From: Patescibacteria group bacterium
GTDB lineage: Bacteria > Patescibacteriota > WWE3 > UBA101185 > UBA10185
NCBI GenBank assembly: GCA_049322215.1
Contig: JBMORU010000001.1
Coordinates: 836,023-900,022 of the forward strand
DNA length: 64,000 nucleotides
Reading direction: 5' to 3'
The position numbers and the translations under genes are program-made. The notes beneath the pieces are model-generated. The model saw nothing but the letters and a program-made list of their open reading frames with translations, was not told the origin of the DNA and made no database searches. Every line of letters begins with the position of its first letter. Positions within the stretch are counted from its first letter, which is position 1. Shown piece by piece: positions 29 through 53,314 of this stretch.

Positions 29-1243
29 ATGCCCAATCTTAAAACTATTCAAGAAGCTTCGCAAGAGTTAGGAATATCAACAGATACATTAAGAAGATGG
101 GACAAAAAAGGCCTTATAAAATCAAAAAGAAATGAGTTAAATTACAGAGTTTTTGATACCGAAGAAATAGAGCGAATACAAAGTAAATTAAACGGCGATA
201 CTTCAAAAAACCACTTTAAAATATATAAAAATAAAAAAACTTATAACTATAAGGTTGTTGAGTTGTTTGCTGGTGCTGGTGGTACAGCATTAGGGTTTCA
301 TAATGCAGGTTTGCAACATGCATTGTTAATTGAAAATGATAAATTTTGCGTAGCAACATTAAAGAAAAATAAACCCAAGTGGAATATAGACGGTAGAGAC
401 ATAAGAACAGTTGATTATACGGGCATTAAGGCTGATATTGTAGAAGGGGGATTTCCATGCCAATCGTTTAGTTATGCTGGAAAAAGACAAGGTTTTGGAG
501 AAACAAGAGGTACTTTATTTTTTGAATTTGCGCGTGCAGTTGATGCGATTAAACCTAAAATTGCAGTTGCAGAAAATGTAAGGGGTTTAGAAACCCATGA
601 TGAAGGCAGAACATTAAAAACCATGTTACATACTTTAGAAAATCTTGGCTATAAAGTGGCGTATAAAATATTAAAAGCTCAGTATTTTGATGTACCTCAA
701 AAAAGAGAACGTATAATAATTATTGGAGTGCGCAAAAATCTAAATATTCCCATTTTGTTTCCCAAAGAAAAAAATTATATTGTAACTTTGCGAGAAGCAT
801 TGCAAAATGTACCAGAATCTGAAGGTCAAACATATTCAAAAGAAAAAGAAAAAATAATGAATCTAATTCCTCAAGGTGGTTATTGGAAAGACTTACCAGA
901 AGAACTTCAAAAATCTTATATGGGAGCAAGCTATTATCACACAGGAGGTAGAACAGGTATGGCTAGGCGTATGTCCTGGGATGAGCCCTCTCTAACATTA
1001 ACTACAAGTCCATCACAAAAGCAAACCGAAAGATGTCATCCAGAAGAAACTAGACCATTTACAGTCAGAGAATATGCAAGAATACAGACCTTTCCTGACG
1101 ACTGGGTATTTGAAGGGGGAATAACATCAAAATATAAACAAATTGGCAATGCCGTGCCAGTAAACCTAGGCTATCATATTGCAAATGGAATAATTAACAT
1201 GCTTGAGGGAAATATGGATAAAGACAATTTTGTTATTGTGTAG
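29..1243 (+). CDS. DNA (cytosine-5)-methyltransferase with N-terminal MerR/excisionase-like HTH domain
   Basis: Motif I FAGAGG, motif IV PCQSFSYAG, ENV, C-terminal QIGNAVPV; N-terminal 'ISTDTLRRWDKKGLI' HTH. Confidence 0.9.
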   Translation: MPNLKTIQEASQELGISTDTLRRWDKKGLIKSKRNELNYRVFDTEEIERIQSKLNGDTSKNHFKIYKNKKTYNYKVVELFAGAGGTALGFHNAGLQHALLIENDKFCVATLKKNKPKWNIDGRDIRTVDYTGIKADIVEGGFPCQSFSYAGKRQGFGETRGTLFFEFARAVDAIKPKIAVAENVRGLETHDEGRTLKTMLHTLENLGYKVAYKILKAQYFDVPQKRERIIIIGVRKNLNIPILFPKEKNYIVTLREALQNVPESEGQTYSKEKEKIMNLIPQGGYWKDLPEELQKSYMGASYYHTGGRTGMARRMSWDEPSLTLTTSPSQKQTERCHPEETRPFTVREYARIQTFPDDWVFEGGITSKYKQIGNAVPVNLGYHIANGIINMLEGNMDKDNFVIV

Positions 1244-1848: not shown

Positions 1849-3066
1849 TTAACCAAACATCAACAACTCAGGTTTAAATATAAGCAGTAACCCCACAATA
1901 AGCATAAGAATACCCCCTATTAAATGCGAAACACGACTATATTTAGTACTTATACCCGTCATTTCTAAGGTTATCATTGCTGTAAAAAAAACGAATAAGT
2001 CATCTAACATAAATACTAAAATATATAAAAGCATGTAAGCATAGTATTGCCACTGAGCTAAATTACTTAGTGTGAGTATTTGAGTAAAAACTACAGGTAA
2101 TCCCGCCGAACATATTAATTCTACTAAGTTAACTGCAAACGCCAAAAGAATAATTCCACCTAAAGCTATAAAAAATTGTTTTTGGTGTGTGATATTTTTT
2201 AACTTCTCAAAAACTAATTTCCTTTTTTCACCGCCAGTAACTTTACAACCACTATCTTTATTTGTAAAAAATTCTTTAAGATTATAGCCACCTCCACCTA
2301 TTGCTACTATACCAATTAGTATTCGTACCCAAACTATAAACCCAATAAACAAAAGTAAGTTTAACCAAGCAGCCATGAATAAAAAGTAAACAAACGCAGA
2401 AGCAACAATAAATGCTGTACCTAAAATCCAACGTCTTTTTTTGTCTTTCATACCTAAAAGCAAACTAATTAAGAATAGAAGCGTCCACATAGCACAAGGA
2501 TTAAAACCATCTAACCCACCAAGAACAACTGTTAAAACAGGTAAAGATAAGTTTTTAGGGTTTACTTTTCCTATAATGGGTAGGTTAAGCTCTGCGGGTA
2601 TAGCATCAGGTTGAACTTTATCCGGCACTGGTTGTGTAGGACTGTCAGGAGGTGTGTGAACAGAAGCTAAAATTTCATCCACAATATCTCGGCTATCATT
2701 TGCTAAAGCAAGTTGAACAGCATTTTCAATATCTTTTCCTGTGGTTTCTTCACTTAACCACCCTGTAAAATGCTTTTCTCCAACAACAGTAAAAGGTACT
2801 CCAGAAACTTTTATACCCAGGTTGTTTCCTACTTCAATAAGTAACTTCCTGTTTTCGCTGCTTCCCCAAGTTTCAAAGTCATTAACTTTAACTTCGGGAT
2901 ACTTTTTTTCTAACTCTTCTAAGAAGGGCTTTTCGTTAGCACAATGGGGGCAACCGTCTCCCCAAAAGAAATAAATATTAACTACTTTTTCTTGGGCAAA
3001 GGCAGGTTTAGCTAATAAAAGAAAAAGTATTAACCCAAATGAAATTTTAGACAGTTTTTTAAGCAT
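1849..3066 (-). CDS. thioredoxin-fold (CPHC) domain fused to a CcdA/DsbD-type transmembrane domain; secreted/membrane thiol-disulfide protein
   Basis: Signal peptide; WGDGCPHC redox motif; TM region with conserved Cys pair (GFNPCAMW ... ELICSAGLP) typical of the DsbD/CcdA core. Confidence 0.7.
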   Translation of the reverse strand: MLKKLSKISFGLILFLLLAKPAFAQEKVVNIYFFWGDGCPHCANEKPFLEELEKKYPEVKVNDFETWGSSENRKLLIEVGNNLGIKVSGVPFTVVGEKHFTGWLSEETTGKDIENAVQLALANDSRDIVDEILASVHTPPDSPTQPVPDKVQPDAIPAELNLPIIGKVNPKNLSLPVLTVVLGGLDGFNPCAMWTLLFLISLLLGMKDKKRRWILGTAFIVASAFVYFLFMAAWLNLLLFIGFIVWVRILIGIVAIGGGGYNLKEFFTNKDSGCKVTGGEKRKLVFEKLKNITHQKQFFIALGGIILLAFAVNLVELICSAGLPVVFTQILTLSNLAQWQYYAYMLLYILVFMLDDLFVFFTAMITLEMTGISTKYSRVSHLIGGILMLIVGLLLIFKPELLMFG

Positions 3067-5014: not shown

Positions 5015-6355
5015 ATGAGCGGAGAACAATTTATTCCACCAGAAGCAATTCAAGAATTAATAGAAAAGGATTTGGCAAATGACGATGGTAAAAATACAGT
5101 GCAACGAGCGGGAGAGTACTACCCAAAAGCTACAAAAGATGCGTTTGAAAGAAGGGAATATTTTCTTGAGTATAGAAGCGCCGACTTAGAGAGCTTAATT
5201 GGAAGAGAACTACAATTTCCAATAGAGGCTTCTGAGAGTCAGATAGCAGAAGAATTAGATTTAGCAACACTATTCATTGTTTCTGAACTAACACAAGGCA
5301 AGTGGAAAGACGACTTTTTAAAAGAATACTACGGCGAATACTATACGCAATTAGCCGAAGGAAAAGATTCAAACAAACTAATTAATGACATAATAGAAAA
5401 TGATGGTAGAGAAGTAATTATTCAAGAGCTTACAGGTTTTTTTGTAGAGGGAATAAATAAAGAACTTGAAAAAGCAGAAAAACATCAATACGGCACACTA
5501 ACATCTGGTTTAGAGTTAGAAGTTGTACCAACAGATTTATCGAGTAAAAAAGCGCTAAAAGAGCAGGTAGCTCAAATAGATACATTGCAAGATATAGGTT
5601 ACCCAATAATGCTAGATATGTTAAGAGAAATACCTTTACCAAAATCCCCTTCAGCACACGAACAACTAAAAGCAACCTTAGAACTTATCGAAATGGGAAT
5701 GATAAAACCAAATCAAGAAATTGCCATTCACTTGAATTTTGGAGGTTTTGAGCGTTTTGACCAAGATTTTTTCATGCTGGATCAAATTATACGAACTTCT
5801 AATCTTTTTGGAATTGAAATTAATCCTTGGGATTCAGACGAACCCCCTGAAGAAGCCCGAAAGCCTTTGTATGAAGAAGATGTTTTTTCACCTATGGGTT
5901 TTCCATTTAAAGTAAGAGAAGATGGTGTAATTGAGTTTAGAGGACTCCCCCAAATGATTGACTACAAATCTTATGCTAAAGGCATAAAAACAGTAGAATC
6001 CTTATGCGAATCGCTTGCAGCTTATCAAAGGCAAGACTTAGGTAAAGAAGATAAAACAGGCAAAGATGCCGAGTTAGCCGCTGTTTGGAAAGATTTGCGA
6101 AATAATACAAGGCACAACTTTGGCACGTGGTTTCATTACGGAGAAATTGATTCTTACTATAACTTTGAGGATGCAGAAGAATACTGGAAACATGTTTCAA
6201 GACTAAAAATAAAAGTGGCTACAGTGGGCATGGACAGAGAAACATTACAGGAAAACAAAAGAAGAAGCGAAACTATTCACAACGACGTAGTAGAAGCACG
6301 TATTAAAGCTAGTAAGCTGCTTAAAGATGCCCACAAAAAGGGGGGAATTGATTAG
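5015..6355 (+). CDS. hypothetical cytoplasmic protein (446 aa, acidic)
   Basis: Long uninterrupted ORF, no recognisable motif. Confidence 0.5.
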   Translation: MSGEQFIPPEAIQELIEKDLANDDGKNTVQRAGEYYPKATKDAFERREYFLEYRSADLESLIGRELQFPIEASESQIAEELDLATLFIVSELTQGKWKDDFLKEYYGEYYTQLAEGKDSNKLINDIIENDGREVIIQELTGFFVEGINKELEKAEKHQYGTLTSGLELEVVPTDLSSKKALKEQVAQIDTLQDIGYPIMLDMLREIPLPKSPSAHEQLKATLELIEMGMIKPNQEIAIHLNFGGFERFDQDFFMLDQIIRTSNLFGIEINPWDSDEPPEEARKPLYEEDVFSPMGFPFKVREDGVIEFRGLPQMIDYKSYAKGIKTVESLCESLAAYQRQDLGKEDKTGKDAELAAVWKDLRNNTRHNFGTWFHYGEIDSYYNFEDAEEYWKHVSRLKIKVATVGMDRETLQENKRRSETIHNDVVEARIKASKLLKDAHKKGGID

Positions 6356-7254: not shown

Positions 7255-8829
7255 TCAATAAGTTACAGAAGATGCTGCCCTCTGCTTTTTGTTAAGTTCA
7301 ATTCTAACTTTATATCCATACTTATTAAAAAGATAAATAAGTTCCTCACCGTTAATAAGTTTAAGTGGCTTGTCTTTTGCAAATTCAAGAGAATCTTTAC
7401 CATAATAGCTTGTAGTTACTAATATGCCCTTTACAGCACCTTCGTTAAGCATAGTTCCATACAAATCTCTCACAGCACTAACTGGAACCAAATTGTTATA
7501 TCTCTTTGCTTGAATAACGTATTTTCCTCCCCTAATTGGATCTTGATCAAAAGCTATAGCATCAACACCTGCATCACGAGAGGCTCTTGTAACTTCGACC
7601 CTACATGTATCTGTAGAAAACATTTTTTGAACTAAATCTCTTACAAGTACTTCAAATTCTTGCCAGTCCATTATTGCAAGATTTACAGTTTCGTCTAACC
7701 CTTCAATTACACTCGATGCCTGAATAATCCTGTTATCTTCTGTATTCAGTTGCATTATTGGTTTTACTGGTGCCAATTTTGATAAAGACCCAGCAGTTAT
7801 ACCTTTTAAGTGTTTGAAGCAGTCAGTAGGTGCAACATTTATTAAATTTATGTCACCAAATTCTTCACGATTTACCTGTAAGCTTGCTATACAGTTATTG
7901 AATTTATTTCCAGTTTTAGAATCTATTCCTTCTACCCATCCATTTATTACTATTGTTTCAACATGATTATTATAGTCTGATTCGAAAACCTCATGAATTG
8001 TACGTAACAGAATTTGATATATAACTTCATTGTAAAACTGTTCGAATTCTTTAATACCCATTTTGACTTCTTCTATGGAATCTCTAGATCTAATATATTT
8101 AAACTCTTTGATATAAGGAACCTCTTCTGTATAAGGTAATGACATTTCTATAAGAAGCAGTTTAGAGTTTGATTCGTACGAAACTTCAGAAGATAAATTG
8201 AGCGTTTCAGGATACTCCGATCTATCTAGGACAGTTTCTATATAATGAACTACACCATCTCTTTCGCCTTTTTCATAGCTAGCCCTTTTTGCATCTATTT
8301 CTTCGTTAAAAGCCTTTTGTTGTAATTCAAAATCCGCTTTCTCTTTTTCATAAACTTCTTTACGGCGCTCTTCTATTTTTCCCCATTCTTCTTCTGCAAC
8401 GGCAAAACTCTCTTCTGCTTTTATTTCTGCATTTATTCGTTTTTCTTTAAATATGGGTACAAATTCTATAAAGCTTTTTTTAGGAACACCAATAAGAAAT
8501 TCTTCTTTTATTGGCTTTTCAGATGGGGCATAACTTTTGAAGATCTTATTGTTTTTTATACTTTCCCAATCAATTTTGTCATTTCTATCTAGCGTGTATT
8601 TCAAAATTGTTTTGTAAGAGTTAATTTCTTCTTGTGCTAATTTTGTTGAATTCAATGCTTCATTCTGGGATTTTTCTTTGGCTCTTAGGTTCTCATACTT
8701 TATATGCTGTTCTTCCCAAATCCTTTGCCTTTTTCTTACTTTTTCATCAAAGATAAATTTGTCATTAGATTTTATGAGAATGGTTTCTCCAGTGTAATCG
8801 TTAGTTAAATATGTTTGATAAGTTGCCAT
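7255..8829 (-). CDS. Mrr-cat (restriction endonuclease-like) domain protein with ~400-aa N-terminal coiled-coil/unknown region
   Basis: C-terminal 'DAGVDAIAFD...YVIQAKRY...GILVTTSYY' matches the Mrr catalytic-domain pattern (D..D...QxK). Confidence 0.7.
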   Translation of the reverse strand: MATYQTYLTNDYTGETILIKSNDKFIFDEKVRKRQRIWEEQHIKYENLRAKEKSQNEALNSTKLAQEEINSYKTILKYTLDRNDKIDWESIKNNKIFKSYAPSEKPIKEEFLIGVPKKSFIEFVPIFKEKRINAEIKAEESFAVAEEEWGKIEERRKEVYEKEKADFELQQKAFNEEIDAKRASYEKGERDGVVHYIETVLDRSEYPETLNLSSEVSYESNSKLLLIEMSLPYTEEVPYIKEFKYIRSRDSIEEVKMGIKEFEQFYNEVIYQILLRTIHEVFESDYNNHVETIVINGWVEGIDSKTGNKFNNCIASLQVNREEFGDINLINVAPTDCFKHLKGITAGSLSKLAPVKPIMQLNTEDNRIIQASSVIEGLDETVNLAIMDWQEFEVLVRDLVQKMFSTDTCRVEVTRASRDAGVDAIAFDQDPIRGGKYVIQAKRYNNLVPVSAVRDLYGTMLNEGAVKGILVTTSYYGKDSLEFAKDKPLKLINGEELIYLFNKYGYKVRIELNKKQRAASSVTY

Positions 8830-10033: not shown

Positions 10034-11338
10034 ATGAAAATAAGGGAAAACACTACTATAATAAACTATGCGATTGGTATCCTAAAAAAGTGGAATAATC
10101 ATATTGTAAATTACAGTGTTGACGACAGCACAAGATTAAAAATGTTAATTTTATTGCTATTTACCTTCTTTTTTGGAATGCATCTTATTATTTCTGGGCA
10201 TAACGAATATGTAAACCAAACTGCAGCCTGGTTAAACGGAAAACTAGATATTCCTATGGCGCACTGCGGTGTTGATTCAGTAATTAAAAATGGTAAGTGC
10301 TATTGGACTTTAGGGCCTGCACCTTCTGTGTTATTACTACCCATGGTGGTACTTCTGGGTAGCAAATACTATTACTCGCAAAATATTTTAAATACTGTTT
10401 CAATTTTCTTAAGCTTTGTTTTTGCCTATAAAATAGCAACTAAACTAAAGGCTTCTAAAACTAAATCTATTCTACTTGCTGCTACTTTAATATTTGCTAG
10501 TACGTATATAAACGTATTAACAACACCTACTGGTTGGGCAATAGCCCACTCAACAACTGTGCTTTTTTCCTTGTTAGCCATATATGAATATTTAGATAAA
10601 AGACGACTTTTTTTAATTGGTTTACTCGTAGCTGTAGCAACAGCAACACGCATAACAACGGGGTTAGGAATAATTTTCTTTATTTATTCTGAAATTAATA
10701 GTAAATCAGACTTTAGCAAAAAAATTGCCAATGTATTAAAACTAACACTACCTGTTGGTTTAACAGTATTACTACTAACTGGCTTCAATGTTGCTAGATT
10801 TGGTAATGTTGCTGAGAGCGGTTATATATACCTTGCTGATAATATTTATTTCCCGTTGCTTGAGCAATACTACAATGAGCCAGTTTACCACACCTTGTTT
10901 CATATAAGTAATGTACCTAAAAATTTTGCAACTTACTTTTTAACAACAATTGGTAGGGGAGTACTTGGCTTAAATATTAATTTTTTTCTTGTATCTTTGC
11001 CATTTTTATACGTTTTTAAAACTAAAATTTCAGATAAATATGTGAAAGAGGCCTTAACAACTTCGTTTTTGATTTTAGTTGTATTGTTGAGTTACTATTG
11101 GCCGGGGGCTGATCAGCTAGGACCAAGATATACATTAGATTTATTGCCTTTTTTATATATACCTTTGTGTGTGTCACTAAGAAATAGTAAAAAAATATTA
11201 CTTTTTAAGTTACTTATGCTGTTATCAATATTTATAAATTCAACTATTATAGGGTATAAAGAAGTGTATGTTTTAACTAATCCCGAAACTATAGCCTGGT
11301 ATTTACAACATAGGAGTACGTTAACTGAAATAAACTGA
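10034..11338 (+). CDS. polytopic membrane protein, possibly GT-C-fold glycosyltransferase-like
   Basis: More than 10 predicted TM helices; no soluble domain. Confidence 0.35.
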   Translation: MKIRENTTIINYAIGILKKWNNHIVNYSVDDSTRLKMLILLLFTFFFGMHLIISGHNEYVNQTAAWLNGKLDIPMAHCGVDSVIKNGKCYWTLGPAPSVLLLPMVVLLGSKYYYSQNILNTVSIFLSFVFAYKIATKLKASKTKSILLAATLIFASTYINVLTTPTGWAIAHSTTVLFSLLAIYEYLDKRRLFLIGLLVAVATATRITTGLGIIFFIYSEINSKSDFSKKIANVLKLTLPVGLTVLLLTGFNVARFGNVAESGYIYLADNIYFPLLEQYYNEPVYHTLFHISNVPKNFATYFLTTIGRGVLGLNINFFLVSLPFLYVFKTKISDKYVKEALTTSFLILVVLLSYYWPGADQLGPRYTLDLLPFLYIPLCVSLRNSKKILLFKLLMLLSIFINSTIIGYKEVYVLTNPETIAWYLQHRSTLTEIN

Positions 11339-11522: not shown

Positions 11523-12461
11523 ATGATGGTAAAAGCTACTAAAGTCGTAACATTTCTATTTCTGCTGGCAGTATTTTCCACTTTTACTTACTTTTCATTT
11601 AGTAAAGTAACTACAAAATTTATTAAAGACTTTAATCGCTCAATGCTTCAAAGCGAAATTGAAACAGTAAAAACGGCGTTCTCACGTAGAACTGAAACAA
11701 TAGCACGCCTAAACGCAGACTGGTCTCAATGGGACGATTCTTATCAATTTGTGCAAGACTTAAACAATTCGTATATAGAAGCAAACTTAGTTGATGAAAC
11801 ATTTCAAAGTGCAAACCTTAATATGATTTTATTTTTTGATCGCAACGGCAACATAGTTTATAAAAAGGCTAGAAGCTTAGGCGGAATAGGCGATACATCA
11901 ATACCAGCAGAAGTTTTTAATTACACCACCAACAATAATAGAATCAACATTCAAGAAATAATTAGCTCTGGAAAACAGCAAACAGGGTTTTTAAGTACAA
12001 CTCAAGGAACATTTATTTTTGCTGTAAGTCCAATTATAACAAGTGAAGGAGAAGGTCCCGCAATGGGTGCTTTAATGATGGCGCGCTATTTTAACAACAC
12101 TGACCTGGAAGAACTAAAACAATACACGGGATTCAATTTAGATTTTGTAGAACACACTAGTTTAGGAAATTGGCAGCACCCGGAAGTAACATATAAAGAT
12201 ATAGAAAAAAGAGATTTTGTAGTTGAAAAAAATGATGTTTTCTCAGTATATACACTAACTAAAGATTCCTGGGGTAATGACGCAAAAGTAATAAACTTGC
12301 AGCATAAAATTGTAGGGCTTAACTATGTAAAAAAGCTAACATTAACTTTAACGGCAATTTCAGGCATAGTAACAGGATTGTTTGGATTAACTGTGCTGTC
12401 TGCACGTTCTACTAAAGATTTATACGAAATGGAAGAGAAAGTTATTAAAAACGTAATTTAA
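11523..12461 (+). CDS. membrane-anchored extracytoplasmic sensor-like protein (CHASE4-like), no output domain
   Basis: N- and C-terminal TM helices flanking a ~250-aa domain with DWSQWDDSYQF and NMILFFDRNGN motifs reminiscent of CHASE4. Confidence 0.35.
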   Translation: MMVKATKVVTFLFLLAVFSTFTYFSFSKVTTKFIKDFNRSMLQSEIETVKTAFSRRTETIARLNADWSQWDDSYQFVQDLNNSYIEANLVDETFQSANLNMILFFDRNGNIVYKKARSLGGIGDTSIPAEVFNYTTNNNRINIQEIISSGKQQTGFLSTTQGTFIFAVSPIITSEGEGPAMGALMMARYFNNTDLEELKQYTGFNLDFVEHTSLGNWQHPEVTYKDIEKRDFVVEKNDVFSVYTLTKDSWGNDAKVINLQHKIVGLNYVKKLTLTLTAISGIVTGLFGLTVLSARSTKDLYEMEEKVIKNVI

Positions 12462-15929: not shown

Positions 15930-16595
15930 TTATATACTTATCGATAAAAAGCTTTTCACATCTATTACACCCGCAGTGTATTCTGCAGCATTTTCTATTG
16001 CGCGTTTTTCGAGCCAGCTACTCACAGTACCTGATAAAGTAACGTGACCCCCATCTACTTCTACATAAATTTCGTCTGAAGTTGAGGATTGCAATCTGTT
16101 AATAGCCGACATAATGTCATCAGCAATGAGTTTGTCTTCAACGTCAGCTGAAGGCACTACTGCTAATCTATTTATTACACTAATAACCCCCATTATTGGC
16201 GTAATAAGTCGTTCTGCATGAAGTTTTTTCCAATAAGCATCTACAGTTCCTTCTAGGGTAACAATACCTTTGTCTACTGACACATCAATTTCAAAGGAAT
16301 AGACATCTGTGTCCCAAAGAATAACGTTATCAGCACTATTTTTTATTTCTTCATCTGAGGGCATTTCTATTGAATCCGGATAACTTACAGTAAGTTGATT
16401 ATTAACAGCTTTTACTCCTGGAATTGCGAAAGCACTGCTTTCTGCAGCTTTACTTATTGAGTAAAAGTTAACTGTGCCTGTAAGCGTTGCTTCACCATTC
16501 TCAACTGTTACTTTCACATCTGAAGCGTCCACAGAAGAGTTCCACTCTAACTCATTAACTATATCAACTTTAATTTGTTCGTCAGTTCTAACCAT
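15930..16595 (-). CDS. BON-domain (OsmY-like) protein
   Basis: Repeated ~70-aa segments with the 'VTVENGEATLTGTV' BON pattern. Confidence 0.6.
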   Translation of the reverse strand: MVRTDEQIKVDIVNELEWNSSVDASDVKVTVENGEATLTGTVNFYSISKAAESSAFAIPGVKAVNNQLTVSYPDSIEMPSDEEIKNSADNVILWDTDVYSFEIDVSVDKGIVTLEGTVDAYWKKLHAERLITPIMGVISVINRLAVVPSADVEDKLIADDIMSAINRLQSSTSDEIYVEVDGGHVTLSGTVSSWLEKRAIENAAEYTAGVIDVKSFLSISI

Positions 16596-16737: not shown

Positions 16738-17151
16738 TTAACCTAATTGCTTAGACTGTTCTACCAATTGTTCTCTTGGTATATCCTCATTGGGAATTTC
16801 TTGCTTTGAAATTATTGTTAATCCTGTTAAAAGTTTTCTAAGTTCAAGAGATTCTCCTCTTTTTAGGTACGAAATAGGTTCGGGATTATGTTCATAGCCT
16901 TCTATTTCAAAAACTATTGTGGCAAAAAAGACTCCTGTTGTAACAGTTACAGTTTTTATATCTTTAATTAAAATTGGAAACTCAGTTTTAAGTAACGGTA
17001 AGTAATTTCTTACAATAACAATTTTCTTTCTATAAACTTCAATTCTATCCGGAAATAAAGTGAAAGGAAAAACAGTGCTAGCAATCATAAGTGGATTACT
17101 TTCTTTAGATACCAACTTGTTAACTTGTTCTTCTATATGATTTTCTGGCAT
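16738..17151 (-). CDS. hypothetical protein, PH-like fold suspected
   Basis: Last gene of the leaderless four-gene operon; no strong motif. Confidence 0.4.
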   Translation of the reverse strand: MPENHIEEQVNKLVSKESNPLMIASTVFPFTLFPDRIEVYRKKIVIVRNYLPLLKTEFPILIKDIKTVTVTTGVFFATIVFEIEGYEHNPEPISYLKRGESLELRKLLTGLTIISKQEIPNEDIPREQLVEQSKQLG

Positions 17152-17154
17152 GGC

Positions 17155-18306
17155 TTAATACCTTAGTGTGGCAGCAATACCGCTAGAAATAGCTAATTGT
17201 TCTTCGGTTACTTTATAAACCTCTCCACCATTTTTTAAAGTTAAAACTATTGCAATGTTCATTAAATCAGTGGATTCTCTTCTTTTTCGTTTATCAATCA
17301 CTGCTGCGCTTGTTGACTCGTTAAACAAGCCCCATGTGTCATTAAAATTATTAATAAATAAAGTATCTACACGACCAAAAGCGGCTGATTTCAAAATATC
17401 GGTTAAAACTGTAAGTGAGTCACCAGTATTATTTTTGTATTTATCTATAGCAAGTTCTTCCTTTGAAACATATTCTTTTTCTACTAGCTGACGAGTTTTG
17501 CCTAAAAATTTCATTCTATCGCTTTTTGTATCAGGATTTCCATTTACATGTGCTTCAACCAAATGTGGATAATTATTAACTTTTTTATACTTTGCAAAAA
17601 TAGTGTCTGTGCAAATTAACACCAAAGGTAAATCATAGTTAGATATAATTTTGTTTACGTGGTTATCCAAGCGTTCTAAATAGCGTTGAAGTAAAGCATC
17701 GGTGCCATCTTTTATAGAACCATGCCCGTGAAACACTACACCACCCGTTGCACCACTTGATACAGCAATAGGTTTTGTAGCATGAAATTGTATTGATTTA
17801 TCAATATCAACTTCTGCAGGTAAAATTTCGGATCTAGAAATTAAGTCATAGCTACTATCAGCTACTGCATACAAAAAGTTCTTTTTTGGACTAACTGCCA
17901 AAACATAATACTGCGTGCTTTCACTTAAATAAGGTACTAAATGTTTAATGTTGAAATAAACCCCTAAATAAAACTTAGATGGAGTACTTTGTGGCAAAGC
18001 TACCGCTAGTTGCGTACTTTCTGAAATAATAAATAGCATGCTAGACGATGTTGTTTTCCAAAAATCTTCGGCAGAACTTAATTCTTCAATAGGGGATAAG
18101 TATTCAGTAATTTCAGGATTACGAAGTCCACGTGCGTATAATTTAGCACGTACTTCAGTCAAAAGATTTTTTAAGCGTATTCTAGCCTTGTCGTTACTTT
18201 CCCAGCGTCTATGCGTGTTTAAATAAACGGTTATAGCAGGAAATTTTTGTCTCTCTATCATTTCAGCTAAGTATTTTTTTAATTCATATGTTTTTATGAC
18301 TTTCAT
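17155..18306 (-). CDS. bacterial Pelota/eRF1-like (baeRF-type) protein
   Basis: C-terminal 'GRVDTLFINNFND...KNGGEV...EEQLAISSGIAATLRY' matches the eRF1/Pelota domain-3 hallmark (ETLLIS...GGIAAILRY); GGQ-like loop replaced. Confidence 0.55.
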   Translation of the reverse strand: MKVIKTYELKKYLAEMIERQKFPAITVYLNTHRRWESNDKARIRLKNLLTEVRAKLYARGLRNPEITEYLSPIEELSSAEDFWKTTSSSMLFIISESTQLAVALPQSTPSKFYLGVYFNIKHLVPYLSESTQYYVLAVSPKKNFLYAVADSSYDLISRSEILPAEVDIDKSIQFHATKPIAVSSGATGGVVFHGHGSIKDGTDALLQRYLERLDNHVNKIISNYDLPLVLICTDTIFAKYKKVNNYPHLVEAHVNGNPDTKSDRMKFLGKTRQLVEKEYVSKEELAIDKYKNNTGDSLTVLTDILKSAAFGRVDTLFINNFNDTWGLFNESTSAAVIDKRKRRESTDLMNIAIVLTLKNGGEVYKVTEEQLAISSGIAATLRY

Positions 18307-18904
18307 TTTCTATATTAGAAGATACATCAGTCAGTTCTAGGTCTGCCTCCCAAAGAATTCTAGAAACTTTTGTATTACCACTTTTAAGTAATGCTAAAAA
18401 TATGTGTTCTGGCTGTAGCATTGTGTTTCCCATATCTCTAGCCTCACTTAACGAGTTATTAAGTACAAATTCCACCTCCTCCGATAAATTTACAGAGTTG
18501 TTTTTGGAAAAAACATTAAATCCTACACCTTTTTCAGCGTGCTTAGGAATAATTGAGTGCAATAGTTTTAAGTTTGACCTATATATAGGAACTAGCTTTT
18601 CAACTACTGCTTCATGGCTGATTAAAGCTTGTAGCAAGTGTGTCACTCCAAGTGCGTTTGCATTATAAGAAAGAGTTATTGATCCAGCATTTTTTAAAAC
18701 ATCTTTCGATTCACTACTTAAATATCTTGATATATCTATATTAGGTACAGAATCAACTAAATCTGCTTCGTAGTTTAAATCGCGGCTAAATACAGTGTAT
18801 TCTCTAACAGTATCGTTAGATAATAAAGAAGCAAGTGATGTACCTTTTGAATTTTTAAATATACTTCTATTCATACGGTAATAATAACGAAGCAAAAAAT
18901 GCAT
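18284..18904 (-). CDS. Clp N-terminal-domain repeat protein (stand-alone, no AAA+ module)
   Basis: Two Clp_N-like repeats: 'ALGVTHLLQALI' and 'EARDMGNTMLQPEHIFLALLKSG'. Confidence 0.55.
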   Translation of the reverse strand: MHFLLRYYYRMNRSIFKNSKGTSLASLLSNDTVREYTVFSRDLNYEADLVDSVPNIDISRYLSSESKDVLKNAGSITLSYNANALGVTHLLQALISHEAVVEKLVPIYRSNLKLLHSIIPKHAEKGVGFNVFSKNNSVNLSEEVEFVLNNSLSEARDMGNTMLQPEHIFLALLKSGNTKVSRILWEADLELTDVSSNIENESHKNI

Positions 18905-18937
18905 AAAATGAATTTTATGTAAGAAGAATGTAAAAAA

Positions 18938-19618
18938 TTATTCGTGAATAGAATAACCAAAACCAGGTGTAGTGTGAATGAGAGGAATTTCTGAGTTTTT
19001 ATCAATTTTTTCACGCAAGTACCCTATGTATACGTCAACAATTCTATCGGATACGTCCTCGGTAGTAGCCCAAACTCTATTTAAAATCATATCGCGGGTT
19101 AAAACTCTGTTGGCGTTTTCCATTAAGTACTGAAGTAAGCGGTACTCAGTTGGAGTCAAAATTATTTCACGATCCCCACGGTGTGCTCGTTTGGTATTGT
19201 CGTTTAGTACTAAATCAGCCACAACTAAATCCCCATTATCTTTGGTCGCTGTCTCCTGTGGAAGTAAAAATTTGTTTATGCGAGACATAAGCTCAGCTGG
19301 TACAATTGGATGCAACATAAACTCGCAGTTGTCGTGTTGTAACATTCTGGTAATTAAACTTTCGTCTTTTATAGCACTAATAATGATAATTGGAATATCA
19401 GGATATAAAGTATAAACTTCTGCATATAGAGTTTCGCCGTCAATATCTGAAAGCTCATATGCGCATATAATTAAGTCTGCGTCTAAATTATGGATATCTT
19501 CCAAAAACTTCAAACCCGATTTAAATAAAGTTACCTTAAAGCCTTTTTCTAACAGTAAGCGTTTGTAAAATTTTGCAAGGGAATCATCTTGTTGCACTAG
19601 AATAAGGTGTTTATTCAT
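18938..19618 (-). CDS. OmpR/PhoB-family winged-helix regulator with degenerate receiver domain (phospho-acceptor Asp replaced by Ala)
   Basis: Receiver segment 'DLIICAYELSDIDG' aligns with the canonical 'DLxxLDxxMPxMDG'; the acceptor D is replaced by A and the conserved K by H; C-terminal trans_reg_C motif present. Confidence 0.75.
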   Translation of the reverse strand: MNKHLILVQQDDSLAKFYKRLLLEKGFKVTLFKSGLKFLEDIHNLDADLIICAYELSDIDGETLYAEVYTLYPDIPIIIISAIKDESLITRMLQHDNCEFMLHPIVPAELMSRINKFLLPQETATKDNGDLVVADLVLNDNTKRAHRGDREIILTPTEYRLLQYLMENANRVLTRDMILNRVWATTEDVSDRIVDVYIGYLREKIDKNSEIPLIHTTPGFGYSIHE

Positions 19619-19624
19619 TTAACT

Positions 19625-19632
19625 ATTATACA
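19625..19632 (-). promoter_or_regulatory. Extended -10 (TGTATAAT) 6 nt upstream of the regulator ATG: leaderless promoter
   Basis: Minus-strand cTGTATAAT-agttaa-ATG, no SD. Confidence 0.4.
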
Positions 19633-19671
19633 GGAGCTGGTAGTTTTTGCTGCTACCACAATCACACTTCT

Positions 19672-19707
19672 CAAAAAACACCCCTTTATTTGAGGGGTGC
19701 TTTTTTA
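19672..19707. terminator. Bidirectional rho-independent terminator (A-run, CACCCC-loop-GGGGTG, T-run)
   Basis: aaaaaacacccctttatttgaggggtgctttttt; ends the minus-strand gene 19726..20235. Confidence 0.6.
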
Positions 19708-19725: not shown

Positions 19726-20235
19726 CTACTCAGTTGCTGATTCTGTTTCAATATCTTGCCTAATTAGCTCTATAAGACCTTCTAATGTAAGTAGGGCATC
19801 TGCAGTATCTTCACGTGTGGTTTGTTCTAAAACTTCTAGTTCTGCATCAATATCCGCCAACTGCTCCTTAAATACACCTTCCGCAGTGTCATAGCTTGCT
19901 TGCACATCCTCTTGAAGTTCTGTAATTTCTTGCATTGTTTCATCTGTTACTTCATCTGCTAAAAAATCTGCTTGAATTGCAACTAAGCGCGCTTCTATTT
20001 GAGCACGCGTTGCCGCATAGTCAATTTCTTGCTCAGCTTCCATTGCAGCTTCTTCTGCTTCGTTTTCAAGCTCTTGAGCTTCTTGTGACACTTCTTGAGC
20101 TGTTTCTTCGGTTTGATCAACAACTGTAGGTACTAAGTCGTTTCCACTTCTATTAAAGGCGACCCAACCTATTAGTAAAGCAAGTACAGCTATAACTCCT
20201 ACAAAAACCATTAAACTACTGTTGTTTTCTTTCAT
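19726..20235 (-). CDS. membrane-anchored acidic coiled-coil protein
   Basis: N-terminal TM helix followed by a highly acidic E/A/Q-rich region. Confidence 0.45.
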   Translation of the reverse strand: MKENNSSLMVFVGVIAVLALLIGWVAFNRSGNDLVPTVVDQTEETAQEVSQEAQELENEAEEAAMEAEQEIDYAATRAQIEARLVAIQADFLADEVTDETMQEITELQEDVQASYDTAEGVFKEQLADIDAELEVLEQTTREDTADALLTLEGLIELIRQDIETESATE

Positions 20236-20249
20236 TATTACCTCCTTAC

Positions 20250-20792
20250 TTAATCATTAACTTCTATTGCTAAGTCTGAAATGTGCATTGCACCGTTAGA
20301 ACTAAATACGTCTTTAATTCTCTGCGTGTCACCATCACGGGCAGTAACACCTACAATTAAGTAGCCCTGCTTAAGATCTTCTTCATACTTAACCGCTAGT
20401 TGTTCATCTACACCTATTTCTTTAAGTGCGCCGGCTATACCACCTACTAAAGAACCAGCAATAGCTCCTGAGGCTGTAGCTCCTGCAACACCCGTTATAC
20501 CCAAGGCGGCAGCAATTGGACCTGAAACAAACAGTAAACCTATTCCTGGTATAGTTAACGCGCCCACGCCAACTAAAAGTCCTAGTATCCCTCCTATAAC
20601 TCCACCCGTTTTAGCAGAATCTTTTACGCCCTCAACTACATTGTTCTCAAATTTAACCTTGTCAGAGTTTAAAGCGTCTTTTGAAGTGACAACAGAAATA
20701 GCATCTTTTGTATAACCATTAACCTCTAAGGTCTTTAATACAGCATTAACTTCATCTACGCTTTTAAACATTCCTAATACATTTTTGGCCAT
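20250..20792 (-). CDS. general stress protein 17M-like (YflT-type N-domain) with Gly-rich membrane region
   Basis: N-terminus 'VLGMFKSVDEVNAVLKTLEVNGYTKDAISVV' resembles the YflT stress-protein domain. Confidence 0.55.
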   Translation of the reverse strand: MAKNVLGMFKSVDEVNAVLKTLEVNGYTKDAISVVTSKDALNSDKVKFENNVVEGVKDSAKTGGVIGGILGLLVGVGALTIPGIGLLFVSGPIAAALGITGVAGATASGAIAGSLVGGIAGALKEIGVDEQLAVKYEEDLKQGYLIVGVTARDGDTQRIKDVFSSNGAMHISDLAIEVND

Positions 20793-20805
20793 TTATACCC
20801 CTTTC

Positions 20806-21084
20806 TTATAATTTAGTACCACTCATTTCGTTATTTATACGCTGCCACATTTCGTTAATGTCATCTTTAACACTTTTCCAAGAGTCATCTGTGATATCGG
20901 CTATTTTGTTAAGCTTCTTTTCTATTTCGTCTAGATCTTCTTTTAGCAAAGAATACTTTTTTTGTGCGGTTTGCTGAAGTTCAGCAGAAGTTTCTTGCAT
21001 ACTTTGGGATAACGCATCTATAGACTGTCGCAGGTCTCGTATTTTTTGTTCCATAGTCGCAACGTACGTTTGCTTTTCATTCAT
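20806..21084 (-). CDS. small coiled-coil protein
   Basis: 92-aa heptad-rich ORF within the stress operon. Confidence 0.4.
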   Translation of the reverse strand: MNEKQTYVATMEQKIRDLRQSIDALSQSMQETSAELQQTAQKKYSLLKEDLDEIEKKLNKIADITDDSWKSVKDDINEMWQRINNEMSGTKL

Positions 21085-21097
21085 GGTAAAGCTCCAT

Positions 21098-21349
21098 TTA
21101 CTTTAATTTAATAACACGTGATAATCCAACTAAAAGCATAGCTCCTAATGTAGCAATTAATATGCTGTAAAAGTTAAATCCTGTGATTCCGGGTAAACCT
21201 AAGAAGGTACTTAAAAACCCTCCGAGCAAGGCACCTAGTATCCCTAAAACTATATTTCCTACAAGTCCTTGCTGCGCATCAGTACCCAATAGTAAAGAAG
21301 CTAACCAACCAACAAGAGCTCCAAATATTATCCAAAGTAATATACCCAT
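21098..21349 (-). CDS. GlsB/YeaQ/YmgE-family stress membrane protein
   Basis: GALVGWLASLL...GNIVLGILGALLGGFL motif. Confidence 0.7.
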   Translation of the reverse strand: MGILLWIIFGALVGWLASLLLGTDAQQGLVGNIVLGILGALLGGFLSTFLGLPGITGFNFYSILIATLGAMLLVGLSRVIKLK

Positions 21350-21449: not shown

Positions 21450-21493
21450 ATTTGTAAGAAATTGAAGAAAAGTACTTGTTTCTTCTTACAAAT
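21450..21493. promoter_or_regulatory. 11-bp perfect inverted repeat ATTTGTAAGAA-N22-TTCTTACAAAT in the divergent promoter region
   Basis: Read directly from sequence. Confidence 0.4.
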
Positions 21494-21553
21494 CTCTTAA
21501 AAATAGTCTAAACTGAATATATAGATAGACCTTTATATATTTAGGAGTACTTT

Positions 21554-50384: not shown

Positions 50385-51962
50385 CTATTTTATTATTAAA
50401 GACGGATCATCTATTTTATACAACACACTTGGTCTTTGATACACATATAAAATTGGCTTTTCAAAATAGTTTAAAGGAAATTTGATACGAACAGAATCAT
50501 ACAGTATTACGTTTGAATAGGTTTTTCTCATATCTACAGGCTTATCTAGTGAAACAATAAAAGTGGGATCTTTAATGCCAAACTTTGTATCCCAAGCACT
50601 ATTAACTGAAACACTTTGCAAAGGAACACCTTTTTTTGTTACTATTTCGGCAGCCAATGCCCAAGAAGCATTGTTTAACCTCACATAGTCCATAGTAAAC
50701 TGATACCCGATAAATGTTAAAAATACTAAATAAGCTATAGAAATAAACTTAAAACTCCAGTTATAGTCTTTATAGGTTTGAACAAACAGTATTATGAGTG
50801 CAGGTATTAAAGGTAATAAATACCTATCGTATACTTTTGGCAACAATACTAATGTAGAAATATAAACAACTATAAAAATTACAAAAAAGTTAATTATTTC
50901 TTCTTGTTTAAACTTTCTTACTAAGTGAGTAATTAAAACACCCGCCCCTAATAACCCAAAATGTCCCCAAAAGCTAAATAAATACAAAATTAAGGAACTG
51001 CTATACTTTCCACCTTGTATTGAAGTTGGAATAAATCCTGTTGAAGTAAAAACATCGTTAAAGTGAGGAAAGGTACTTGAGTAGCTTGTGGAATATATGA
51101 AAAAGCGATCAAACACAAAATAAACAAGAAATATTACAACTACTGTTTGCAAAAGTCTTTTAATAGATTTCTCCTGAACTATGGCATAAAATTCTCTCAA
51201 AACTAAAGGAAAAAGAAAGGCTCCCAGCAGAATAAAAATGGCTACAATCGTGTTTAGAGTAGCCCCCACATTAGTTAAATTATCTAGTAAAACACTTTTT
51301 CTTGAATACATTTCAATTGTTTGAGGAAACTTCAAGTAATAAACCAAAACTGTAACTATAAATAAAACAGCTTCTACAAGAGCATAATAGTATTTCTTTT
51401 TGAAAATATAGTAAATTGCTAAGGCCAGGGCAGAAACTAAAATAATTTGACGTACAAAAAAACCTATTACCAAAGATATATTTAAAAATATGAAGTCAGA
51501 AATTTGATCGTAAAGCTCAAGTGAGTGAAAAAAGTAAAACATCATTAAAAGCGCAAGCATCATATAAATTTCTGTCATAAAACTAAAAGTTGAATAAACA
51601 TGCAAGGGGTTTAAAAACATTAAAAAAGCAAATATTCCAATTGTTACTACATCAATATAATAGTTATCGAATAAAATGCGAGCAAACACATAAAAGCCAG
51701 TTACTGAAGCTAATAAAGTAAGAACCGGCAAATTAGACAAAGGGGCAACTGTAGCATAAGCAACTCCCAGTAATCCCTGACTATAAAACGTAGAGGGTGA
51801 TAAAACATGTAATCGATAATCACCAAAAATTAAATTTTCAACCATTGTGTAATAAACCCAGTCATCGCTTTGCATAAAGTTTATTGATAAAACCAACGGA
51901 AAAAGCAGTAAAAAAAGCAAAAATGCTAAATATAAAAACCAATCAAACCACCAACTTCGCAT
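50385..51962 (-). CDS. polytopic membrane protein, GT-C-fold glycosyltransferase-like
   Basis: More than 12 TM helices, no soluble domains. Confidence 0.45.
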   Translation of the reverse strand: MRSWWFDWFLYLAFLLFLLLFPLVLSINFMQSDDWVYYTMVENLIFGDYRLHVLSPSTFYSQGLLGVAYATVAPLSNLPVLTLLASVTGFYVFARILFDNYYIDVVTIGIFAFLMFLNPLHVYSTFSFMTEIYMMLALLMMFYFFHSLELYDQISDFIFLNISLVIGFFVRQIILVSALALAIYYIFKKKYYYALVEAVLFIVTVLVYYLKFPQTIEMYSRKSVLLDNLTNVGATLNTIVAIFILLGAFLFPLVLREFYAIVQEKSIKRLLQTVVVIFLVYFVFDRFFIYSTSYSSTFPHFNDVFTSTGFIPTSIQGGKYSSSLILYLFSFWGHFGLLGAGVLITHLVRKFKQEEIINFFVIFIVVYISTLVLLPKVYDRYLLPLIPALIILFVQTYKDYNWSFKFISIAYLVFLTFIGYQFTMDYVRLNNASWALAAEIVTKKGVPLQSVSVNSAWDTKFGIKDPTFIVSLDKPVDMRKTYSNVILYDSVRIKFPLNYFEKPILYVYQRPSVLYKIDDPSLIIK

Positions 51963-52006: not shown

Positions 52007-53314
52007 ATGAAGAAACTGGCATTAAGGCAAATAAAAACACCAGCATTAATTTTTTTACTCACGCTAACCGTATATCTTTCAAATATAATTTATGATTTCA
52101 ATAAAAATTTAGAACTAAATGACTTTAGAAGAATGATGGTGTCGGCCGATATAGTTTCAAATACGTTTTTGCCTTGGGTGCTGCTGGATCAACACACAAT
52201 AAAGTTTGATAAAGTCAAAAGCAATTTAATTCAGTTTGATGCAAATAATGATCCACCTTACTTTTTAATAGACACAGGCACTAACTACTATTCTTCATAC
52301 CCAATACTTACAGGAATAATGGCATTGCCTTTTTATGTTTTACCTTACTATTTAGGAAAAATACCTAACATTGATAATAATCTTAATTTACTGAAAATAT
52401 TTTTTATTGGCAGAGTTGCTGCCTCTTTTTACACTACACTTGCGGTACTCATCTATTACTACATATTGAAAGAGATCTCTAAAAACGAACTTTTAATCAT
52501 TACATTCACTTTTTTTTATGCATTTGGAACAATTTCCTGGAGTGTAGCCAGTAGAGGGCTATGGCAGCACACTATTTCGCAAGTGTTTATAGCTGCAGTG
52601 ATATTGCTATTACTAAAAGCTAAACAAAATTCAAAATTAATAGGCCTAATAGGATTTTTTGTAGGTTTAACTGTTTTAGTACGACCTACAAACTTTTTGG
52701 TGGCAATTTTTGTTTCTGTGTATGTGCTTACCAAATATAAAGAACAGCGTTTGCGCTACATTTTCTGGGGAATGCCCGCACTTATATTTTTACTTGGTTA
52801 CAATTACTATGTATTTGGCTCAGTTTTTTCAGAAGGCTATGGGGCGCGTAATGATTTTAATTGGTCAACACCATTGAGTGAAAGCTTAACAGGATTTGCT
52901 ATAAGCCCCGCACGAAGTTTTTTGTTTATTTCGCCGCCTTTAGTTTTAGCATTTATTAGTATTTTCAAAATATTTATTAATAAAAACTTTTTTAAAGAAT
53001 GGAACTTACTTGTAAGATATATAAGTTTAGTTTTTATAAGTTCACTTGTTTTATTTGCAAAATGGTACACCTGGGACGGCGCCAACGCATTTGGACATAG
53101 AATGCTTTTAGACTACTTACCAATTTTAGGGTTACTAGCTTTCATTGCGTTTGAAAAATTAAAAAGTCAAGGAAAGATATTAATTTTACTGCTAATTTTA
53201 TATTCAGTGTTGATTAATGCAAATGCAGTGTTTAATAGAAAAAGCAGATGCGATAGAGAACATAATTGGAGTTTTTACTGTTTATCCCCACCGGATAGAC
53301 CAAGCAATTATTAA
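52007..53314 (+). CDS. polytopic membrane protein, GT-C-fold glycosyltransferase-like
   Basis: More than 10 TM helices. Confidence 0.4.
   Translation: MKKLALRQIKTPALIFLLTLTVYLSNIIYDFNKNLELNDFRRMMVSADIVSNTFLPWVLLDQHTIKFDKVKSNLIQFDANNDPPYFLIDTGTNYYSSYPILTGIMALPFYVLPYYLGKIPNIDNNLNLLKIFFIGRVAASFYTTLAVLIYYYILKEISKNELLIITFTFFYAFGTISWSVASRGLWQHTISQVFIAAVILLLLKAKQNSKLIGLIGFFVGLTVLVRPTNFLVAIFVSVYVLTKYKEQRLRYIFWGMPALIFLLGYNYYVFGSVFSEGYGARNDFNWSTPLSESLTGFAISPARSFLFISPPLVLAFISIFKIFINKNFFKEWNLLVRYISLVFISSLVLFAKWYTWDGANAFGHRMLLDYLPILGLLAFIAFEKLKSQGKILILLLILYSVLINANAVFNRKSRCDREHNWSFYCLSPPDRPSNY

Follow-up and report, generated by a model that had tools for sequence, protein, structure and literature searches.

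A 64-kb stretch of a 1.11-Mb contig in a metagenome-assembled genome deposited at NCBI as "Patescibacteria group bacterium" (candidate phyla radiation, CPR), referred to below as the window, encodes a 383-residue protein that, judged by its sequence and its predicted model, belongs as a divergent representative to the Balon group among the bacterial eRF1-fold proteins, and the start of its gene lies within the last codons of a gene for a stand-alone Clp_N protein. The two belong to a set of four minus-strand open reading frames (ORFs) at 19618..18938 (226 aa), 18904..18284 (206 aa), 18306..17155 (383 aa) and 17151..16738 (137 aa), which code in this order for an OmpR-type regulator, the Clp_N protein, the Balon-like protein and a PH-like protein. 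We think it likely that the locus is a stress or dormancy cluster in which a Balon-like factor is accompanied by a dedicated Clp_N partner, with the regulator and the PH-like gene contributed by an older cluster. A first-pass annotation had described the four genes as one operon for an uncharacterised translation-surveillance, ribosome-rescue or conflict system. The genes themselves are real and its observations hold in part, as does its interpretation; the single operon is doubtful, considering a likely internal promoter before the Clp_N gene and a synteny that points to composite origin.

A divergent member of the Balon group

The Balon-like protein (17155..18306, minus strand) scores above the Pfam cut-offs for baeRF_family7 (96.1 bits; cut-off 27.2) and baeRF_family3 (70.4 bits; cut-off 31.5) as well as for families 6, 8 and 11, and its residues 15-383 align to positions 3-361 of the 361 in the NCBIfam profile NF052287, "AOC03_06830 family ribosome hibernation factor" (E = 9e-37). 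AOC03_06830 is Balon itself, found on ribosomes of Psychrobacter urativorans, and the top PDB sequence match by phmmer, 8rd8_B (E = 3e-14, residues 12-383), comes from the Balon–RaiA–70S structure 8RD8 (PMC10901736). An AlphaFold2 model built on 47 homologues (pLDDT 87, pTM 0.79), whose sole disordered segment is a loop of the M domain at residues 169-196, has the N, M and C domains of the aeRF1-type fold. Foldseek places Balon first (8rd8_B, E = 2e-22, TM 0.57-0.60, full length), followed by Msmeg1130 (8v9j_z, E = 3e-17), aRF1 (4af1, E = 3e-14) and Rv2629 (E = 3e-12), with the best eRF1 chains at E = 1e-11 to 1e-9 and the best Pelota/Dom34 chains at E = 1e-8 to 1e-6. Profile and structure comparison thus both bear out the first-pass assignment to a baeRF or eRF1/Pelota fold without GGQ. 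What has to be given up is the label "uncharacterised," as such proteins have been known since 2024 as Balon ribosome hibernation factors and have NCBIfam models.

The sequence features agree with this placement. The length of 383 aa falls inside the published range of 360-420 aa for the Balon group, and the protein contains no GGQ or NIKS string. The tetrapeptide NIKH at residues 119-122 was considered as a NIKS counterpart and rejected: it sits at the junction of the N and M domains and aligns to ATRD in Balon. The domain-3-like motifs that had first drawn attention to the protein are present, as it ends in ...SSGIAATLRY and contains GRVDTLFINNFND, and they are features of the family, with R382 invariant, Y383 found in 43 of 47 sequences and G311-x-V-D-T-L conserved. 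Close relatives are few: among 5.8 billion proteins there is one at 98% identity and one at 41%, the remainder lying at 31% or below.

Balon binds the ribosomal A site together with EF-Tu and inhibits translation, independently of mRNA, and the more remote relatives Msmeg1130 and Rv2629 are A-site binders as well (Helena-Bueno et al., Nature 2024, PMC10901736). With A-site binding shown for Balon and for these two remoter proteins, each of which has an NCBIfam model of its own, the window protein falls between tested members, and A-site binding by it is a well-supported inference from sequence and model. Under stress or starvation, it would by homology enter idle or stalled ribosomes at the A site and keep them inactive, and since it lacks GGQ, the nascent chain would not be released.

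The same fold admits a different role, that of a Pelota/Dom34-like rescue or quality-control factor acting on stalled ribosomes, with the Clp_N protein passing nascent chains on to Clp proteases. The confirmed eRF1/Pelota fold is compatible with it, rescue-type roles were proposed for baeRF-1 proteins by Burroughs and Aravind, the authors of the Balon work did not exclude other activities, and a substrate-recognition module such as Clp_N would suit a quality-control hand-off. We nonetheless consider this role improbable, given that a catalytic glutamine motif, GGQ or other, is missing from the protein, that Balon and the mycobacterial proteins, the closest ones tested, act in hibernation and leave the nascent chain where it is, that the neighbouring genes are of the dormancy and general-stress kind rather than of rescue or RNA repair, and that no Clp ATPase or protease is encoded in the window.

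A stand-alone Clp_N gene overlaps the Balon-like gene

The Clp_N protein (18284..18874, minus strand) combines a family-specific N-terminal extension of ~55 residues with a complete two-repeat Clp N-domain and has no AAA+ ATPase module. Pfam Clp_N recognizes only the second repeat (34.5 bits; cut-off 20.7), the first being degenerate. The full domain is apparent from the alignment of residues 57-186 to residues 11-136 of the ClpC/ClpC1 N-terminal domain (NTD), from the match of residues 63-200 to positions 2-137 of the TIGR ClpB profile, and from the family profile, whose positions 63-192 align to ClpC1 NTD 10-137 (E = 1e-7); the PDB matches are to ClpC/ClpC1 NTDs at E = 1e-5 to 1e-7. The description as two Clp_N repeats without an ATPase thus stands, and only the proposed length changes. 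The longest ORF, from 18904, gives 206 aa, a start that we rejected; translation most likely begins at Met11 (18874), for a protein of 196 aa, because the N-termini of the homologues align there, NCBI annotates it (196 aa, "Clp protease N-terminal domain-containing protein"), and the sequence TATTAT-N6-ATG precedes it.

Proteins of this architecture are rare. Searched exhaustively with HMMER, a set of 1.84 billion representative proteins gave 291 matches at E ≤ 0.001, most of the best of which carry several Clp_N repeat stretches. Only P0083 (195 aa) and P0154 (199 aa) share the architecture, along with a fragment at the locus L006, and a word-indexed homologue search returned the query alone. 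The N-terminal extension (SLxSLLxxDxxR ... VPxID) is unique to the window protein, P0083 and P0154 and occurs in no other Clp_N match; outside this small family, identity to Clp_N proteins is 22-33%. One further stand-alone Clp_N protein, P0198 at L017, has no adjacent baeRF gene.

The 3′ end of the Clp_N gene and the start of the Balon-like gene share 23 nt (18284..18306, minus strand), the Balon ATG lying inside ...GAA AAT GAA..., and the overlap reported by the first-pass annotation is thereby confirmed. Within a census made up of a handful of short metagenomic contigs, the overlap is kept at two further loci, L006 (14 nt) and L013 (29 nt), although the paired proteins of the three loci are only 25-42% identical. 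At L006, the end of a Clp_N-type gene overlaps the start of the 41% Balon relative, and an OmpR-type regulator gene adjoins in convergent orientation. At L013, the P0083 gene overlaps a baeRF gene for 388 aa (32% identity), followed by CsoR-like and glutaredoxin genes, with neither a regulator nor a PH-like gene on the 3.1-kb contig. In the overlapping pairs, the Balon ATG sits within conserved C-terminal codons of Clp_N, ...(E/D)-N/E..., and the Balon-like N-termini, MK(V/I/T)IK, align among homologues. A genome scan with the single protein found nothing; with a three-sequence alignment, the genomes yielded L015 and the metagenomes L016, one locus each, so that the overlapping pair is found in three of the five distinct loci of the sub-clade (the window, L006 and L013; not L015 or L016). 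The linkage to a stand-alone Clp_N protein therefore recurs with overlapping genes, and translational coupling of the two genes is probable on this sequence arrangement.

L001 is a 98% copy from the same species, with the Balon, 137-aa, BON and pterin genes in identical order, and at L002-L005 Balon relatives of ~30% identity stand beside Usp-domain genes. At L014, the 3′ end of the P0154 gene (3811-4410) reads ...AAAAATGAAAAC..., which includes the ATGAAA that begins the Balon gene at other loci, and a Balon gene may have been lost there; a glutaredoxin gene lies downstream, as in L013.

Probable promoter and candidate operator of the pair

Upstream of the Clp_N gene, the window holds two elements that recur elsewhere. 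The first is a -10-like box, TATTAT (18881..18886, minus strand), 6 nt before the Met11 ATG, with equivalents at L013 (TAGTAT-N7-ATG) and L014 (TATCAT-N6-ATG). It is a probable internal leaderless promoter for the Clp_N and Balon-like genes, and possibly serves the PH-like gene too. The second is a direct repeat, TTACA-N6-TTACA (18918..18933, minus strand), just past the stop codon of the regulator gene, a candidate operator with a wider conserved core of TTTTTACA-N4-TCTTACA. In the window, its 3′ end lies 43 nt before the Clp_N ATG and its centre ~51 nt upstream, and the exact copies in L013 (565-580) and L014 (3752-3767) likewise stop 43-44 nt short of the Clp_N ATG. Each of the three full-length Clp_N genes is thus preceded by the repeat, at loci whose proteins share 25-28% identity. 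By number it is unexceptional in the window, with two exact copies (0.54 expected) and 12 one-mismatch copies (15.6 expected), and therefore counts as evidence only through its conserved position, for which we estimate, from the base composition of the window, a chance of ~1e-5 per locus for a match within ±1 nt, although L013 and L014 may not be fully independent of each other. Since the repeat is fixed in place and -10-like boxes stand 6-7 nt before the ATG, the arrangement suggests a separate leaderless promoter for the Clp_N–Balon pair, with a predicted activator-type site near -51.

What might bind this repeat? Members of the OmpR/PhoB family bind direct repeats with an 11-bp period, and because the TTACA repeat is of that kind, the adjacent aspartate-less OmpR-type protein would be the leading candidate. 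A different answer is that the Clp_N protein is no Balon-binding partner but an autoregulatory sensor like ClpC2: its extension would bind the TTACA repeat of the Clp_N promoter, its domain would sense a ligand such as phosphoarginine-marked proteins, and the cassette would thereby be induced in proteotoxic stress. There is a precedent in mycobacterial ClpC2, a stand-alone protein resembling the ClpC1 NTD that represses its own promoter via an operator and is released by phosphoarginine; the repeat precedes all three full-length Clp_N genes, even in L013 and L014, where the contig has no response regulator, and the conserved extension of ~55 aa is absent from other Clp_N matches. Yet the PDB searches matched N-domains of ClpC, ClpC1, ClpA and ClpB and no chain named ClpC2, Pfam finds no recognized DNA-binding domain in the short extension, a direct repeat of 11-bp period is the classic kind of OmpR-family site and an OmpR-type gene is adjacent both in the window and in L006, and the conserved overlap with the Balon gene points to stoichiometric co-production rather than to a regulator and its target. 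On balance, we regard a ClpC2-like sensor as a minority possibility and the OmpR-type protein as the preferred binder.

A one-mismatch copy of the repeat at 21486-21501 (plus strand), TTACAAATCTCTTAAA, is nearly identical to the L013 copy. It falls into the intergenic region from which a Transgly_assoc stress operon and a gene of the glyoxalase/VOC type (21554+) diverge, and may provide the same regulator with a second site. No TTACA-type site was seen upstream of the regulator's own gene in the window or in L007. An inverted repeat, TGGTAG-N9-CTACCA (19638-19658, minus strand), ends 5 nt upstream of the extended -10 box of that gene and spans the usual -35 position; from its sequence, it could be a candidate operator or a small hairpin.

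The regulator gene has a putative leaderless-type promoter of its own, an extended -10 box TGTATAAT (19625..19632, minus strand) 6 nt before its ATG (19618). The TGTATAAT-N6-ATG that the first-pass annotation had pointed out is therefore in the sequence, but the arrangement is not special to the unit. A -10-like hexamer ending exactly 6 nt upstream precedes 10 of 50 true ATG starts in the window (20%) vs 14 of 1975 control ATGs (0.7%), and about one third of the ORFs have leaderless geometry while about one third have a Shine-Dalgarno sequence, so that by this sequence count leaderless starts are a genome-wide habit. Starts of this geometry, with a TATAAT-like box, include those at 5015, 14190, 19618, 56058 and 58764. 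As for the terminators said to bracket the unit, the upstream one is there, a hairpin (19699-19679) and T-run (19678-19673) on the minus strand, following the upstream stress operon and delimiting the unit on its 5′ side; in the terminator scan, the hairpin appears as 19679-19699 on the plus strand, and the minus strand reads GCACCCCTcaaataaAGGGGTG and then TTTTTT. The downstream one is missing, no terminator-like site being found between the stop codon of the 137-aa gene (16738) and the next same-strand gene, BON (start 16595).

An older regulator and PH-like pair around the cassette

The 226-aa protein (18938..19618, minus strand) is an OmpR/PhoB-family regulator with Pfam Response_reg (54.5 bits) and Trans_reg_C (90.6 bits) domains. 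In alignments to DrrD, KdpE and PhoB, its active-site residues corresponding to the DD-D-T-K quintet are Q9 Q10 - A53 - S81 - H103, which confirms the pseudo-receiver and shows that beyond the phospho-acceptor Asp (Ala53) and the conserved Lys (His103), already known to be substituted, the acidic pair is replaced too (Gln9-Gln10). It thus agrees with the published definition of an aspartate-less pseudo-receiver (PMC12632262). The orthologue at L007, 52% identical, has D9 N10 and N53 at the acceptor site and keeps the Lys. The reported lack of a nearby histidine kinase extends to the whole window, in which no HisKA or HATPase_c domain was found among the ORFs of at least 120 aa that were searched. 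The sole sensor-type protein of the window is a CHASE4-only ORF of 312 aa (11523-12461, plus strand; 127 bits), in which no kinase, cyclase or other output domain was detected.

The 137-aa protein (16738..17151, minus strand), whose ATG is separated from the Balon-like stop codon by 3 nt, is annotated at NCBI as hypothetical (ACOZAO_04580) and has no Pfam, NCBIfam or PADLOC match. Its 12 homologues, at 29-46% identity, have the conserved motif TVFPFTLFPD in common, and in two of ten family members there is a weak bPH_3 match (E = 0.044). The AlphaFold2 model (pLDDT 82.7) consists of seven strands and a C-terminal helix, and Foldseek matches it to PH or PH-like domains only (best E = 5e-4, TM ~0.45-0.6), among them the bacterial PH proteins 3dcx and 3hsa (E ~6e-4, TM 0.5-0.6), in keeping with the earlier description as PH-like.

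The evolutionary unity of the four genes does not survive a comparison with L007. There, the regulator orthologue is directly followed by an orthologue of the 137-aa protein (46%), the only case of regulator adjacency among the homologues of that protein, with the four-gene stress operon nearby, and tblastn of the 16-kb L007 finds no Balon or Clp_N gene. The Clp_N–Balon pair, for its part, occurs elsewhere with neither of them. Because L007 holds the regulator and PH-like genes side by side without the pair, gene order indicates that the supposed four-gene operon is composite: an older regulator and PH-like pair of a conserved stress cluster, with a Clp_N–Balon cassette between them here. Recurrence of gene order, proposed as a check by the first-pass annotation, is thus found for the Clp_N–Balon pair (L006, L013) and not for the four genes as one unit. 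L007 and L013 come from one sequencing run (SRR33375174), have G+C contents of 0.368 and 0.353, and could be two loci of one genome.

Proposed mechanism and points that weigh against it

Taken together, we favour a hibernation cassette that would work as follows. The pair would be transcribed from its own leaderless promoter, with TTACA-N6-TTACA as the likely target of a regulator. Since the last codons of Clp_N overlap the Balon start, the two proteins would probably be co-produced via translational coupling and act together. In the reading that we prefer, Clp_N would be a stoichiometric partner controlling the availability, loading or removal of Balon; for example, it might hand Balon to Clp-type machinery or shield Balon from it. 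The regulator and the PH-like gene would belong to the older conserved stress cluster, the cassette having its place between them in this lineage. A more specific version, in which the pair forms a two-protein CPR module whose Clp_N protein gates Balon loading or removal or links hibernation to damage signals (phosphoarginine), with induction by the aspartate-less regulator via the TTACA repeat, is in our judgement possible yet doubtful.

Several observations weigh against this reading as a whole. First, the 383-aa protein scores 127.4 bits on NF052287, well below the equivalog cut-off of 330, and Balon itself reaches 506.7 bits, with the window protein and its relatives at 89-168 bits. This shortfall indicates a divergent sister subfamily and not an equivalog. 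At the position equivalent to GGQ, before the long M-domain helix, the window protein has VFHGHG (residues 191-196), at the end of the low-confidence M-domain loop, and Balon has GDGGS. The hexapeptide is conserved in the family (F in 40, H in 39, G194 in 46, H in 35 and G in 33 of 47 sequences), and because it stands where Balon has GDGGS, contacts with the peptidyl-transferase centre may differ from those of Balon. Further, RRWESND aligns to REHPAND of Balon, which holds the only H-P dipeptide of Balon's aligned N-domain and may or may not be the published "HP motif". The features described for Balon are that HP motif, an N-domain insertion contacting A1492/A1913, together with a lasso loop, a bL27 trap and an EF-Tu-binding beta-hairpin. 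As a separate observation on the hexapeptide, Gln replaces its second His in five family members.

Second, the partnership is not obligatory, because L015, in a Saccharibacteria metagenome-assembled genome, and L016 carry sub-clade Balon-like genes without an upstream Clp_N gene, and L014 carries the P0154 Clp_N gene without an adjacent Balon gene. Third, L013 and L014 have the repeat but no regulator on their short contigs, and the link between regulator and operator is unproven for that reason. Finally, the window contains no gene for RaiA/HPF, a Clp ATPase or ClpP, and genomes with Balon also encode RaiA.

Stress-gene neighbourhood and the question of defence

The genes around the unit are of the general-stress type (BON/OsmY-like, YflT, Transgly_assoc and Hsp20), in agreement with the published contexts of Balon, for which OsmY is named as a common neighbour (PMC10901736). 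Downstream, a triple-BON, OsmY-like protein (15930..16595, minus strand; Pfam BON 141 bits in three stretches) has a gene with a strong Shine-Dalgarno sequence (GGAGGTG) and its own TGTATAAA box. Upstream lies a four-gene stress operon (19726..21349, minus strand) for a Transgly_assoc protein of 83 aa, a 92-aa protein, a YflT-like protein of 180 aa and an acidic membrane protein of 169 aa. Their L007 orthologues are 78%, 29%, 71% and 46% identical, respectively, and cluster with the regulator. The operon occupies 9814-11486 in L007 and is close to the aspartate-less regulator in both places; the ~90-aa protein is helical, and the YflT-like protein has a Gly-rich membrane tail.

The suggestion of a conflict or abortive-infection role, in which the cluster would be an anti-phage system that stops translation on infection, fares poorly against this background. 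Burroughs and Aravind tie baeRF-1 diversification to biological conflicts. Within the window are an Mrr restriction endonuclease (7255-8829) and a DNA methylase (29-1243). Translation shut-off is a known logic of abortive infection. Against it stand the lack of any significant PADLOC match for the four proteins (nothing for the Clp_N, Balon-like and PH-like proteins, and only E = 0.022 for the regulator), the failure to find relatives of Balon or Clp_N on viral contigs, the distance of 8-17 kb to the restriction genes with housekeeping genes between, and nearest neighbours that are general-stress proteins in synteny with L007, with no defence-island context. We consider an anti-phage role highly improbable and retain hibernation under stress as the preferred reading.

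Elsewhere in the window, the methylase is one of the C-5 cytosine DNA methylases and is fused at its N terminus to a MerR-type HTH (29-1243, plus strand), and the Mrr-type restriction endonuclease domain is the C-terminal part of a 524-aa protein (7255-8829, minus strand) whose ~380 N-terminal residues are unassigned. Pfam leaves five ORFs of 405-525 aa without a match, one of them (10034-11338) at a threshold of E ≤ 0.001 and the other four (1849-3066, 5015-6355, 50385-51962 and 52007-53314) at E ≤ 1e-6. An Rfam scan of the window found one tRNA and nothing else, and its G+C content is ~33%.

What is new and why it matters

The protein family and its function are already known (2019, 2024), and atypical OmpR regulators, stand-alone Clp_N proteins and bacterial PH proteins are known kinds. 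The new element is a dedicated Clp_N partner of a Balon-like factor, whose role we infer only. No word beginning with "Clp" occurs in the main text of the Balon paper (PMC10901736), in the 2019 baeRF paper or in the 2025 preprint on hibernation-factor evolution; Balon and Patescibacteria appear together in none of the top-ranked literature matches, and no accessory protein controlling Balon turned up in the literature searched. Balon-type hibernation was described only in 2024, and its loading onto and removal from ribosomes are not explained in the Balon literature searched; the small Clp_N protein, encoded at three divergent loci by a gene that runs into the start of Balon, is a candidate accessory factor for these steps. 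Balon-like genes are also of interest in the Patescibacteria/CPR as such, ultra-small bacteria with reduced ribosomes; in the only member examined, RaiA is reported to be needed for growth (PMC11665869). The strong leaderless signature offers a separate lead on translation start in Patescibacteria; one review of the group does not mention the term "leaderless."

Comparison with known systems

The accessory proteins of the locus resemble known types from which they also depart. Like HP1043/HsrA, ChxR and NblR, the atypical OmpR/PhoB members, the regulator joins an OmpR winged-helix output to a receiver-like domain without the acceptor Asp and has no partner kinase nearby. Unlike a true member of any named type, it scores far below the cut-off on every NCBIfam model, including NblR, among its best matches at 109 bits, and is the equivalog of none, departing from the consensus at four of five active-site positions (QQ, A, H). 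The 137-aa protein shares with the bacterial PH proteins 3DCX and 3HSA a seven-stranded sandwich capped by a C-terminal helix but matches no Pfam bPH model and has a TVFPFTLFPD motif of its own. The Clp_N protein has the complete two-repeat N-domain of ClpC, ClpC1, ClpA and ClpB, and like the ClpC2 proteins of mycobacteria and Streptomyces it is small and stand-alone, has additional sequence at its N terminus and is preceded by a promoter that contains a conserved repeat. It differs from all of these in the family-unique extension, the degenerate first repeat and the overlap with a Balon-like gene.

The 383-aa protein corresponds to archaeo-eukaryotic eRF1 and Pelota/Dom34 in overall fold and domain order, and differs from them in having no NIKS, GGQ or Pelota loop A, so that it is predicted to be non-catalytic; at the level of the family, bacteria with baeRF proteins keep their own RF1/RF2-type termination (2019 baeRF paper). 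Its closest counterparts are Balon, known from PDB 8RD8, 8RDV and 8RDW (PMC10901736), Msmeg1130 and Rv2629, which have the same three-domain aeRF1-type fold, a similar length and likewise no GGQ or NIKS. The C-terminal ...RY and the GRVDTLF-type domain-3 motif are those of the Balon group, and as with Balon genes, the gene sits among stress-response genes with an OsmY/BON-like neighbour. Compared with Balon itself, the window protein is only ~20% identical in structural alignment, has baeRF_family7 rather than family3 as its best Pfam match, and is encoded by a gene that no RaiA gene adjoins and that is preceded by the overlapping gene of a stand-alone Clp_N protein.

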